Assembly (NCBI GenBank): GCA_963828705.1
Contig: CAWHGA010000032.1
Coordinates: forward strand, 7,058-71,057
Length of the DNA stretch: 64,000 nucleotides
From: an uncultured delta proteobacterium
GTDB taxonomy: Bacteria > Desulfobacterota > Syntrophobacteria > Syntrophobacterales > Syntrophobacteraceae
Reading direction: 5' to 3'
This document shows positions 43,216 through 56,850 of this stretch, piece after piece. The position numbers and the translations under genes are program-made. The notes beneath the pieces were generated by a model that saw nothing but the letters and a program-made list of their open reading frames with translations, was not told where the DNA came from and searched no databases. How positions within the stretch are numbered: position 1 is the stretch's first letter; every line of letters starts with the position of its first letter.

Positions 43216-43243
43216 TGAAACAAAACTGATTATTGTTCGTCTA
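43216..43243 (+). promoter_or_regulatory. ECF-type promoter motif upstream of the ECF sigma gene (possible autoregulation)
   Basis: TGAAAC (43216-43221), 16 nt, CGTCTA (43238-43243). Caveat: the -10 lies only about 15 nt from the ATG, so the SD (43246-43253) would sit at the very 5' end of the transcript. Confidence 0.35.
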
Positions 43244-43257
43244 ATGGGAGGAGTCCG

Positions 43258-43827
43258 ATGGAAAATCCGGTGAACGGGGTCCAGGAAGAGCCCGGGCTTG
43301 CCCTGCCCCGCTCCGACGATCACGAAGCCTTCACCCTGTTCTACCGGCAGACAGCCGCCGGCATTTATGCCTACCTGTACCGTCTCTGTGGTTGCCCGCA
43401 CTTGGCCGAAGACCTTTTGCAGGAAACCTTTCTGGCGGTCTTCAGGGGTTTGGCTGATTTCAAGGCCCGGTCGTCGCCGCGGACATGGTTGTACGCAATT
43501 GCCACCAATAAGTTCCGCGACCATTGCCGAAACAGATGGGGGAAGGTCGAATTGGATTCAGAATCGCTCGAAGCGCTGCCTTCTTCCGGGCCCGTGCCCC
43601 TGGAAGAGGTAATACAAAGGGAAGAATCCCGGCGGATACACGAGGCAATTCTGGCCCTTCCTCCGGAGCTGAGGACCGCCTTGCTGCTGGTTCGCTTCGA
43701 GGAGCTGAAATACCTGGAGGCGGCGCAGATTCTCGGGACCACACTGTCAACGGTCCGCATGCGGGTCCATCGTGCCCATTGCATATTGGCGCAAACGCTG
43801 GGGGAGACAAGCCATGGACAGAGATGA
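43258..43827 (+). CDS. ECF (group 4) sigma-70 family RNA polymerase sigma factor
   Basis: Region 2 contains AEDLLQETFLAVFRGLADF and RTWLYAIATNKFRDHCR. Region 4 contains LPPELRTALLLVRFEELKYLEAAQILGTTLSTVRMRVHRA. Confidence 0.9.
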   Translation: MENPVNGVQEEPGLALPRSDDHEAFTLFYRQTAAGIYAYLYRLCGCPHLAEDLLQETFLAVFRGLADFKARSSPRTWLYAIATNKFRDHCRNRWGKVELDSESLEALPSSGPVPLEEVIQREESRRIHEAILALPPELRTALLLVRFEELKYLEAAQILGTTLSTVRMRVHRAHCILAQTLGETSHGQR

Positions 43828-53897: not shown

Positions 53898-53954
53898 TTC
53901 CGGGCGCATGCCGGCGCATAATCCCGGAAGAAAACCCCTGATGGCGAAAAATTC

Positions 53955-56850
53955 ATGAAGAGTGTTTTTGAAAGAGAAGGAAAGCTTCTCAAGCTGGAAG
54001 GAAATAAGCCGTTTCCGCTCAATGCCGGAAGGCGAGTTTGGCTCGTGCGTACCGGAATGGTCGATGTTTTTGCCGTCATGACGAGACAAGGCGAACCTGC
54101 CGGTCCCAGAGACTACCTGATACGGGCAAGGGACGGAGATTTGCTGTTCGATGCGGGGGGCCTGTCGAAGGAAGATATTGGTGTGTTCGCAATCGGTACT
54201 CCCGGGAGCGAAGTCCTTGAACTGGGGCTTGGCCGCTTTGAAGAACTCTGCGCAGACCCTTCCTTCCAGACTCGAGCGGAAGGAGCGATTGCCGGCTGGG
54301 TGAGTGGTTTGTCTCTGGGCATCCGGAAGGAGATGCCGCCAAAGGAGACCGTCCAATTAGTTGCCGGGAGAGAGATTTCAGTGGCGGGCAGTAAAGATGT
54401 GCGTCCAGCTTCAGGCGTCGTCTGGGTGAGCCATCTGGATGGGGTCTCTTATTTCCTAGGCAGAAACAACCTGCCTCAAATTGACCTGGGCTCCGGTGTT
54501 ATCCCGATTTCAGACCTGGTGTGGCTCCAATCCCTAAGTGATGCAAAGTATCGCGTCTTGGACACGGCGACCTGCCTGCGGGAGGGATCGTTATGGTCCG
54601 GATTGGAAAGATTCCACGCATTGGTGCTGGACTGCCTCGAACAGAATTGGCTGGATCAGGAAGAAGAGGAAAGCCGGCGACTCCACACCAAAGCTATAAA
54701 CGAGCAGGACGCGTCTAAGAACGCACTCCTCGGGCTGGCATCGATCCTGGAGCCGGAACGGCCTCTGCCGGTCGTGGGTGCGGGCGAAGAAGACGCCCTG
54801 CTTGCCGCCTGCCAATTGATAGGGCAAAAATTGCGAATCGAGTTCAAAGCCCCTGGCAAGGGGACAATGGTGGGAAGCGACCCTTTAGCCGCCATAGCCT
54901 GGGCATCCAGGATTCGACACAGGCAGGTTGTGCTCAAGGGAAGATGGTGGAAACAGGATGTCGGTCCACTCCTGGGGCGCATGGAAGAGGACAAGAGGCC
55001 CGTTGCATTGCTGCCCGTTTCACCTGGGCTTTACGAGATCAATGACCCCACTACTCGTGAGCGGATCAGGGTAACCAGCGAAAACGTTCAGCTTCTGAAC
55101 CCATTCGCCTTTACTTTCTATCGCCCTTTTCCCAACAGGCCGCTGAAGGGTTGGGATCTCTTCAGGTTTGGCATTCGAGGGTGCATGGCCGACATCGTCA
55201 CCGTCACCCTCATGGCGACACTGGGAGCGCTTCTTGGCTTGATCACTCCGATTGCGATGGGGATTGTCTTCGATACGTTCATCCCTGATGGGGCGCGCGG
55301 CCAGCTTGCGCAAATAGCGCTCCTTCTGCTCGTGTGCGCTCTTGCAACGGCTGCTTTTAACATGACAAAAGCAGTGGCGCTGCTCCGCTTTGAGAGCAAA
55401 ATGGACGCATCCCTCCAGGCCGGCGTCATGGACCGTCTACTCTCGCTGCCCGTCCCCTTTTTCAAAGACTATACCACTGGCGACCTGGCGGACAGGGCGC
55501 TGGGTATCAATAGCCATCCGGCAAATTCTCTCAGAGACAGCCGTCCAAACCTTGCTCGCCGCTATTTTCTCACTGTTCAATTTTGCGCTCATGTTCTGGT
55601 ACGATTTGCAGCTCGCGCTGGTTGCGACGGGAATAGCGATCTTCGGAGTGTTGGTGACCTGTGTTGCGGGCTTTCGACAAGTCGGCTATCAAAGAAAGCT
55701 GAGCGAACTCGAGGGGAAAATCTCGGGAATAGTATTCCAACTGATTTCGGGCATCTCCAAGCTGAGGCTCTCGGGAACGGAAGATCGCGCCTTCGCGGTC
55801 TGGGCCGGGGAATTCGGACGCCAGAGAAAGATGTCGTACAAGGTCGGCGTCGTATCGAATCTCCTGCTATCCTTCAACTCGGCGTTTCCGATCCTCTCCC
55901 TCATGGCCATTTTTGCGTGTCTGACCCTGCGTGAAAGTGGAACCGGCTCACTCAGTACCGGCAGTTTTGTGGCCTTCCTCGCCGCCTACACGATGTTTCA
56001 AAACGCGCTGCTCCAAATGAGCAGGACGCTCATTTCTTCTCTGCATGTCATTCCGCTTTACGAAAGGGCAAGGCCCATTATCCAGCGCCAGCCGGAAGTG
56101 GACAAGACGAAAAACAGTCCAGGGGAATTGAGCGGGGAGATTGAAGTCAGCCACGTACACTTTCGCTACTCATCCGACGGCCCTTTGGTTCTCAAAGATG
56201 TTTCCTTTCACGTCCGACCAGGCCAGTTTATTGCCCTTGTAGGAGGTTCGGGTTCCGGAAAATCGACCATGTTGCGCCTCCTGCTTGGTTTCGAAGAGCC
56301 GGAGTCCGGCACGATCTACTACGATGGACAGGAGCTGGCAGGAATCAATATAAGGGAATTGCGCCGGCAGATCGGAGTGGTACTCCAGAGCGGGAAAATT
56401 ATTGCAGGCGACATTTTCAAGAATATTGTCGGTTCCTCCTCGTTGACTCTCGATGACGCATGGGAGGCGGCCCAAATGGCGGGACTTGAAGAGGATCTGC
56501 GGCAGATGCCCATGGGCATGCATACAGTGCTTCCTCCTGGAGGAGGAACCCTGTCCGGGGGACAGCGCCAGAGACTCATGATTGCGAGGGCCATCGTGCG
56601 CAAACCTCGCCTGCTGTTTTTCGATGAGGCTACCAGTGCACTGGATAACCGCACCCAGTCAATCGTGAGCAGGAGTCTTGAAAAGCTCCACGCCACCAGG
56701 GTGGTCATAGCGCACCGGCTGAGCACTATCATGCATGCTGATCACATCCTTGTGTTCGATAAAGGACGGATTTGCCAGGAGGGAAATTATGAGCAATTGC
56801 TTGACACGGGAGGACTCTTTGCCGAGCTTGCCAAAAGACAACTGATTTGA
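53955..56850 (+). CDS. Second NHLM-type ABC exporter (cNMP-binding-like N-domain, no peptidase); frame broken once (+1) at about 55514
   Basis: ORF 53955..55934 and ORF 55390..56850 join at ...DLADRALGINS/IRQILSETAVQ. Walker A GGSGSGKST, signature LSGGQRQR, Walker B LLFFDEATSALD. Confidence 0.85.

Follow-up and report, generated by a model that had tools for sequence, protein, structure and literature searches.

We describe a locus for a predicted thiazole/oxazole (TOMM) peptide in a 64-kb stretch of DNA from an uncultured delta proteobacterium (64,000 nucleotides of contig CAWHGA010000032.1, referred to as the window), in which the genes for an NHLP-type precursor, its maturation enzymes and its exporters are headed by genes for a sigma factor of the extracytoplasmic function (ECF) type, a small protein with a double-glycine (Gly-Gly, GG) tail, and a member of the DUF7005 family with an HExxH motif. 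Our central proposition, built on sequence comparison and to which we would give an even chance, is that the C39 peptidase of the exporter gates an autoregulated sigma switch through the GG-tailed protein, a putative anti-sigma factor. The biosynthetic and export genes make up an ordinary member of the NHLP/TOMM/NHLM type, and control of a cluster for a peptide made on ribosomes and modified after translation (RiPP) by an ECF sigma/anti-sigma pair is already known from MibX/MibW. We found no description in the searchable literature of an anti-sigma factor with a double-glycine tag for a peptidase-containing ABC exporter, nor of any system joining NHLP to an ECF sigma, or an anti-sigma to a C39 peptidase. 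The association of DUF7005 with NHLM exporters, previously unannotated, is a second, smaller finding.

The gene for the small protein lies directly downstream of the sigma gene, overlaps it by 14 nt and is translationally coupled to it, an arrangement also present in the related loci L081, L083-L086 and L089, and the ATG start at 43814 is backed by homologues beginning MDRDEIL. The protein is composed of anti-sigma-like helices (residues 3-74), a leader-like segment, ELSDEELEQAAGG (residues 78-90, nt 44045-44083), and a disordered 12-residue tail. An AlphaFold2 (AF2) model has three helices (residues 3-53) with a predicted local distance difference test score (pLDDT) above 90. These are followed by a fourth helix and a short one at SDEELEQ, and the tail is disordered. 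Comparison of this model with known structures using Foldseek gave 16 matches, 11 of which are anti-sigma chains from ECF sigma complexes, including RslA (template modelling score 0.69, root-mean-square deviation 2.7 over 56 residues), RsiW, RskA, MucA and ChrR, all with E-values above 1. HMMER, run exhaustively against 1.84 billion cluster representatives, returned 28 matches in total, about 22 of them proteins of about 100 residues with the same layout; the weakest matches are ordinary anti-sigma factors of about 290 residues, aligned through the N-terminal region only. The anti-sigma models NF010501 and NF052375 are matched by 17 and 14 of 26 family members respectively, all under the curated cut-offs, and the window protein itself matches NF010501 with E = 7e-8, yet at 32 bits against a cut-off of 225. 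There is a single conserved cysteine (C15) and no HxxxCxxC motif, and the protein is therefore not a member of the zinc-binding anti-sigma (ZAS) group. On these matches it is a candidate anti-sigma factor for the locus ECF sigma. A metagenome scan with the small-protein alignment found, among the matches listed, one locus, a duplicate of the L081 type, and the back-translated pattern corresponds to a generic GG motif.

Conservation within the family is concentrated near the C-terminus. An alignment of 26 sequences, with identities as low as 26%, has invariant columns over the length of the protein only at L79, L84, G89 and G90; A87 is nearly invariant, and the Gly-Gly reads AG in two members. 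These residues occupy positions -12, -7, -4, -2 and -1 relative to the Gly-Gly cut point, exactly the positions of the determinants that direct C39 peptidase domains, and with its hydrophobic residues at -4, -7 and -12 the segment has the predicted form of a substrate for a peptidase-containing ABC transporter (PCAT), in which the GG may also be GA or GS (PMC12537861). The segment ELSDEELEQAAGG also parallels the last residues of the cognate precursor's leader, ELSEEQLSQAAGG, and this correspondence holds locus by locus in relatives. The tail beyond the GG is short, variable, hydrophilic and predicted to be disordered, and it is always kept, never being reduced to zero residues. In Desulfosporosinus lacus (L042, 9310-9744) the small protein has a 39-residue Cys-rich tail after the GG, like the cores of neighbouring GG-precursors, which hints that the GG-tailed proteins originated when the 3' portion of a precursor gene became fused to an anti-sigma gene.

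The sigma factor contains Sigma70_r2 (PF04542) and r4_2 (PF08281), and with only regions 2 and 4 in about 190 residues it is of the ECF (group IV) type; it scores 88.7 bits against TIGR02937 (cut-off 42.9), and its best NCBIfam subfamily matches are PRK12513/SigM-like, all under the equivalog cut-offs. Scanning both strands of the window for TGAAAC-N16-CGTC gave exactly two matches where 0.2 are expected, a count reached in 1 of 100 shuffles. Both are on the + strand, one (43216) 17 nt ahead of the sigma start codon, and the other (45309) directly past the DUF7005 stop and ahead of the precursor. The copy at the sigma gene has the AAC in the -35 and the CGT in the -10 element of a predicted autoregulated ECF-type promoter. 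An ECF-like promoter motif before the precursor had been part of the original prediction, and the 45309 copy, which is conserved in relatives, shows that this motif is real. An extended motif, GAAACAAA-N11-TCGTCTAA, is found at equivalent places in related loci: ahead of the sigma gene and the precursor in L083 and L084, ahead of the YcaO-sigma operon and the precursor pair in L081 and L089 (with an extra copy in L081 ahead of a divergent radical-SAM and precursor operon), and ahead of two precursor operons in L086. It was not found in the sigma-less relatives L001, L002, L087 and L088; among relatives the motif is limited to sigma-bearing loci, and is always ahead of sigma, precursor or maturase operons. 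The presence of the same conserved motif before both the sigma gene and the precursor supports a role for the sigma as a dedicated, autoregulated regulator that would drive the precursor and maturation genes. A consensus scan for sigma-70-like promoters and intrinsic terminators gave no more than shuffled sequence.

A plausible scheme for the switch is as follows. The sigma would drive its own operon and the precursor operon from the same ECF-type promoter. The C39 peptidase of the first exporter (ABC1) would recognise the GG tail of the small protein, as its GG motif is identical in key positions to the end of the precursor leader, and would probably cut after Gly90, so that sigma release would be triggered by the exporter. 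Transcription of the precursor and maturation genes would then require a working exporter, and release of the sigma would be coupled both to the presence of the exporter and to its spare capacity, with accumulating precursors competing with the anti-sigma for the peptidase and so throttling the switch. More speculatively, DUF7005 may dispose of the cleaved GG-leaders, the clipped anti-sigma included. The system had initially been described as signal-gated, for which, in the usual extracytoplasmic sense, there is no support. The small protein shows no apparent membrane segment and no sensor domain, and what is conserved in it, a C39 double-glycine recognition motif, suggests that the exporter itself does the gating.

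We surveyed the neighbourhoods of DUF7005 genes at the best 80 of 532 genome loci, spanning cyanobacteria, Desulfobacterota-like metagenome-assembled genomes (MAGs), Bacillota, Longimicrobia, Actinomycetota and Verrucomicrobiota. The trio of sigma, GG-tailed protein and DUF7005 recurs in the clade of the window and in Bacillota. It is present in every window-clade locus with a DUF7005 identity of at least 69%, whether the maturases are of the TOMM or the radical SAM type; at identities of 67% and below, the DUF7005 gene directly follows the second exporter gene (ABC2) or a periplasmic-binding-protein gene, and there is no sigma. In Bacillota the full trio is found in L003, L010 (Desulfocucumis palustris) and L042, placed between ABC2 and DUF7005, and L079 (Desulfotruncus arcticus) has the sigma and DUF7005 with no clear small open reading frame (ORF). 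An NHLP precursor follows in L003, L010 and L079, together with a radical-SAM/SPASM maturase in L003, and L042 carries other GG-type precursors. The Bacillota sigma best matches the BldN family, unlike the PRK12513/SigM-like sigma of the window, and between the small proteins of the two groups only a 19-residue GG segment aligns (hhalign, 86%). The Bacillota loci also have their own promoter motif, TGTAATGRA-N12-15-CGTAT. It has 9 matches in L003, L010 and L079; L042 has none, and neither do 2.88 Mb of other loci scanned on both strands. In a neighbour-joining tree built from DUF7005, the two groups linked to a sigma fall into different clades, and both have neighbours that lack a sigma. Because the sigma subfamily, the N-terminus of the small protein and the promoter motif all differ, and the DUF7005 clades are separate, the sequences suggest independent acquisition of the two modules as the simplest reading, and such convergence argues that the GG tag on the partner of the sigma is functionally important. 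The most inclusive form of the proposal, in which two dissimilar anti-sigma scaffolds working with different ECF subfamilies in two phyla each independently gained a GG tag, the C39 peptidase is the trigger protease, and DUF7005 is a zinc hydrolase acting on the cleaved GG-leaders, is tentative, and we consider it somewhat doubtful as a whole.

The recurrence bears on whether the sigma module is next to the RiPP genes by coincidence and has another target, which the original prediction had offered as grounds for abandoning it, should homologous loci never carry the module and the module occur elsewhere among unrelated neighbours. Most NHLM/DUF7005 loci do indeed have no sigma (76 of the 80), and to that extent the objection stands; where the module is present, it is always at NHLM/NHLP loci, in two phyla, its shared promoter motif lies only ahead of sigma and RiPP operons, and the GG motif of the small protein matches the cognate leaders. 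Chance adjacency is effectively refuted by these observations, and the role first proposed for the sigma and small ORF, as a dedicated regulator of the RiPP locus, is upheld by the shared conserved promoter and by the recurrence in relatives and in a second phylum. Several points weigh against cleavage by the exporter. The steps of binding and cleavage are themselves read from sequence, and a cut after the GG would take off no more than about 12 residues, with the anti-sigma domain staying in the cytoplasm, which does not explain release of the sigma; a follow-up protease, or sequestration at the pump, may be needed. The anti-sigma model scores and the Foldseek E-values are as weak as given above, no anti-sigma homology was detected in the Bacillota small proteins, and DUF7005 resembles no protein of known function in structure or sequence. 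The exporter genes are downstream of the others and co-directional, and as no promoter of their own was identified, exporter-first expression is not established. Finally, three genes of the locus are frameshifted in the window. Removal of about 12 residues would not obviously inactivate the anti-sigma domain, and the GG tail may instead be an uncleaved docking tag, by which the anti-sigma, with or without the sigma, is tethered to the C39 domain or competed off it, in a sequestration or partner-switching process without proteolysis. The leader-like helix directly follows the fourth helix, and C39 binding could release the sigma sterically; an invariant Gly-Gly (AG in two members) and a tail that is always retained are more in keeping with a site of cleavage than with a helix that only binds, and we regard docking alone as unlikely. 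Still less probable, in our judgement, is that the small protein is mainly the precursor of an exported short peptide, such as a signal or pheromone, with an unusual leader, its link to the sigma being secondary or the protein bifunctional. It does have the layout of a PCAT substrate, with a leader-like N-terminal part, a GG and a C-terminal cargo, its best sequence match in the PDB is a Nif11 domain protein (9zn4_A, E = 0.0014), and the 39-residue tail in L042 resembles neighbouring precursor cores. However, its tails are short and hydrophilic, with poor conservation and predicted disorder, the gene always overlaps the ECF sigma gene, and the 17 of 26 members that match an anti-sigma model compare with none of the 26 for the Nif11 or NHLP leader models. 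The Nif11 alignment owes its score largely to the shared C-terminal GG segment; for this reason, and because no member matches a Nif11 or NHLP leader model, a Nif11-type leader was rejected as the principal interpretation of the small protein.

The frameshifts raise the further question of whether the locus is a decaying, non-functional relic in its source organism. Each of the genes for the YcaO fusion, SagB and ABC2 is cut by one single-base frameshift, overlooked in the original prediction, near 47456 (47450-47466), 49025 (49020-49033) and 55510 (55502-55519) respectively, and three such lesions in three essential genes within 10 kb are what a relic with real frameshifts might look like. 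On the other hand, every fragment still matches its family model strongly with no other damage, and the model coordinates are continuous across each break (e.g. TIGR03797 1-244, then 244-686). The related loci L083 and L084 carry all ten genes unbroken and in the same order, with the affected three encoding proteins of 749 (YcaO fusion, L083 and L084), 473 (SagB, L083) and 964 residues (ABC2, L083). At least three further frameshifts are present elsewhere in the window, outside the locus, at a similar density. Because frameshifts also occur outside the locus and the relatives are intact, assembly indel errors are the probable cause and likelier than real decay, and we think it quite improbable that the locus is a relic; pseudogenisation specific to the locus is likewise disfavoured, as the frameshifts are scattered over the whole window. 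Among the genes outside the locus, one for a Pyr_redox_2/4Fe-4S oxidoreductase (28090-31717, + strand) is in two frames with the split at about 29.7-29.9 kb, and one for a Kef-type Na_H_Exchanger/TrkA_N antiporter (58498-60154, - strand) is in three frames. The spread suggests about one indel per 10 kb across the window.

NHLP/Nif11-leader TOMM clusters with a three-gene NHLM export set were described by Haft, Basu and Mitchell in 2010 (PMC2887384), and the window locus shares with them a GG-leader NHLP precursor, the E1-like/YcaO and SagB enzymes, the HlyD-type adaptor, a C39-ABC exporter and a second ABC exporter. It adds to these the ECF sigma, the GG-tailed anti-sigma-like protein and DUF7005, and its adaptor is shortened to 216 residues. 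The word 'sigma' does not occur in that report, and no metalloprotein partner is mentioned (PMC2887384); as we did not find the sigma module elsewhere in the searchable literature either, its place outside the described architecture, as first claimed, stands. A RiPP cluster with its own ECF sigma/anti-sigma pair is seen for the lantibiotic microbisporicin, where the co-transcribed MibX and MibW act in a feed-forward manner from ECF-type promoters, and the anti-sigma keeps the sigma membrane-bound and is proposed to detect the product once exported (PMC4973701). The window protein differs in having no apparent membrane segment and in that its conserved feature is a C39 cleavage motif. In the flagellar system, FlgM is a small anti-sigma of sigma-28 without a membrane anchor, which is exported whole by type III secretion as a checkpoint in assembly. 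The proposed switch resembles it in that an anti-sigma would be the substrate of the export machine whose cargo genes the sigma controls, with cargo made only if the machine works; it differs in using a peptidase-containing ABC exporter and an unrelated protein, of which only the short tail would leave while the anti-sigma domain stays inside. RseA (cut by DegS, RseP and ClpXP) and RsiW (cut by PrsW and RasP) are membrane-spanning anti-sigmas that are processed by envelope and intramembrane proteases upon outside stress. As with these, a site-specific first cut would start release of the sigma, possibly followed by a second protease, although the candidate protease here, the C39 domain of an exporter, faces the cytoplasm. 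For peptidase-containing ABC transporters, double-glycine substrates are known from PCAT1/CtA (PMC6959990) and from NHLP leaders (PMC12537861). The small protein shares with them the GG, the hydrophobic -4, -7 and -12 positions and a C-terminal 'cargo', but has an anti-sigma-like domain in place of the leader and a short disordered tail as the cargo.

If the proposed switch operates, a potentially self-toxic peptide would be made only when it can be exported, and its production would be matched to export capacity. Such export-coupled logic is, to our knowledge, so far known mainly from flagellar FlgM. Peptidase-containing ABC transporters would then gain, in the anti-sigma, a physiological substrate of a new class, and expression of the sigma, or deletion of the small gene, would provide a handle to switch on silent NHLP/Nif11 clusters.

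The DUF7005 gene is joined to the small ORF by an ATGA overlap, and its product matches PF22541 with 457 bits (gathering score 27) over model positions 2-360 of 361. In an alignment of 26 DUF7005 sequences, H253, E254 and H257 of the HExxH motif are invariant together with E274, a set consistent with gluzincin-type ligands (HExxH with a downstream Glu), and with a spacing that we take to resemble the HExxH-x18-E motif of the M1 family. The AF2 model is confident (pLDDT 92). Comparison with the PDB by fold and by profile gave nothing significant (best Foldseek E = 1.7); M1 aminopeptidase and anthrax lethal factor are among the matches, without significance, and a zincin fold is not recognised. 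Because there is no fold or sequence match in the PDB, we do not assign DUF7005 to a known peptidase family, and no mention of it was found in the searchable literature. We predict that it is a cytoplasmic zinc hydrolase and a recurrent partner of NHLM exporters. The original prediction had included the HExxH protein in a regulatory head with the sigma, and this part does not hold. Genes for an HlyD protein and a C39-ABC exporter lie within 10 kb of DUF7005 in 57 of the 80 surveyed loci (33 of 48 when only loci with both flanks complete are counted), a TIGR03896-like cyclic nucleotide (cNMP)-binding protein gene follows DUF7005 in 49, and an NHLP precursor is detectable in 31; an adjacent sigma is found in only 4. 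DUF7005 is not a sigma accessory, and is a general partner of NHLM exporters. Among genomes, the nearest relatives of the window protein come from two MAGs, one deltaproteobacterial and one of Desulfobulbaceae, with 64-67% identity. A gene for a Peripla_BP_6 (Leu/Ile/Val-binding-type) protein also recurs next to ABC2 in NHLM loci, often directly before DUF7005 (L002, 8763-9965; L087, 6808-7998; L086, 2345-3499; L081, 18620-19786; also L044 and L048). It is absent from the window, and may be another unlisted partner of the NHLM export set. DUF7005, and possibly this periplasmic-binding-protein gene, are unlisted conserved NHLM partners and belong in genome-mining rules.

ORF checks and profile searches confirmed all ten genes of the originally predicted run, from the sigma through ABC2, as co-directional and at the expected positions (Table 1). 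Judged by its protein families, the locus is an NHLP-leader TOMM peptide locus with a standard NHLM export set. The precursor matches TIGR03793 over model positions 2-77 of 77 (cut-off 50.9), as expected of an NHLP leader, which ends in LSEEQLSQAAGG (Gly-Gly) and is followed by a variable core, HHHGCGCG...CCC, of 32 residues with 11 Cys (HHHGCGCGHGCGCGGGCGCVVFFPACRRRCCC). The E1-like/YcaO fusion has the matches of a TOMM cyclodehydratase (TIGR03882, 163 bits against 37; TIGR03604, 288 against 219) and SagB those of a TOMM dehydrogenase (TIGR03605, 174 against 78). The cNMP-binding protein matches TIGR03896 with 142 bits, under the cut-off of 161, over model positions 138-317, and corresponds to the C-terminal half of this bacteriocin-type transport-associated family. 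The adaptor matches TIGR03794 (213 bits, cut-off 156) in two stretches, both ends of the 421-position model being matched and the centre missing; as the 216-residue length is kept in L083 and L084 (L083, 16744-17394), the short form is genuine rather than truncated. ABC1 scores 1113 bits against TIGR03796 (cut-off 853) and has the C39 catalytic Gln/Cys (QMEATECG), His (NHFVV) and Asp (LNDPG). The two ABC2 fragments score 253 and 680 bits against TIGR03797 (model positions 1-244 and 244-686), each alone under the cut-off of 709, and the adaptor, TIGR03796 and TIGR03797 components of the NHLM set are thus encoded together.

Table 1. Positions of the promoters, transcript leader and genes of the locus within the window.
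Feature	Position	Strand	Sequence or supporting match
ECF-type promoter before sigma gene	43216..43241	+	TGAAAC-N16-CGTC, then TAA
ECF (group IV) sigma factor, 189 aa	43258..43827	+	Sigma70_r2, r4_2, TIGR02937
Small anti-sigma-like protein, 102 aa, double-glycine tail	43814..44122	+	Anti-sigma models, AF2, alignment
DUF7005 protein (HExxH ORF), 391 aa	44119..45294	+	PF22541, 457 bits
ECF-type promoter before precursor operon	45309..45334	+	TGAAAC-N16-CGTC
Long 5' untranslated leader of precursor transcript (predicted)	45335..45590	+	3' half highly conserved with L083
NHLP-type precursor, 122 aa	45591..45959	+	TIGR03793, 91.5 bits
Fused E1-like leader-binding/YcaO cyclodehydratase	46340..48591	+	TIGR03882 and TIGR03604 on two fragments
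SagB/ThcOx-type FMN dehydrogenase	48626..50045	+	HTH_57 on fragment 1; ThcOx, Nitroreductase, TIGR03605 on fragment 2
Stand-alone cNMP-binding protein	50263..50832	+	TIGR03896-like, PF00027
Short NHLM HlyD-type adaptor, 216 aa	51058..51708	+	TIGR03794
NHLM ABC exporter with N-terminal C39 peptidase (ABC1)	51705..53897	+	TIGR03796
Second NHLM ABC exporter, no peptidase domain (ABC2)	53955..56850	+	TIGR03797 on two fragments

The precursor cores of the window (45591-45959) and of L083 (11439-11813) are almost wholly different, yet both end in CRRRCCC. The predicted 5' leader of the precursor transcript is about 250 nt long, and its last 130 nt or so are far better conserved with L083 than the protein identity of about 72% predicts; a predicted consensus fold of this leader has 34 pairs, 3 of them compensatory, from two distinct sequences only. 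An Rfam scan of the locus gave no known RNA family and only one sub-threshold CRISPR-repeat match. Precursor and cyclodehydratase are separated by a 380-nt spacer that contains a perfect 9-bp GC-rich hairpin, GGAGCCGAC-GATG-GTCGGCTCC (about 46195-46220), with no T-tract; compared with shuffled sequence, the spacer has the better fold (z = -2.7). The hairpin could be an attenuator or stabiliser that sets the ratio of precursor to enzyme.

The genes flanking the locus are unrelated to it, with LexA, a DUF1353 protein and a Peptidase_S74-domain protein upstream, and PsiE and the Kef-type antiporter downstream, and the boundaries of the locus therefore hold. There is a step in GC content within it, from 0.60-0.62 at 44-50 kb (the regulatory and biosynthetic half) to 0.50-0.56 at 50-58 kb (the cNMP and export half), which may reflect a mosaic origin. 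The Peptidase_S74 (endosialidase chaperone) domain protein upstream is encoded on the opposite strand (40856-42440, - strand), and is preceded by ORFs in other frames with repeats of the type GYSNTTG-x-NSFIG; probably these all belong to a single gene, tail-fibre-like or adhesin-like, which frameshifts have likewise broken up.

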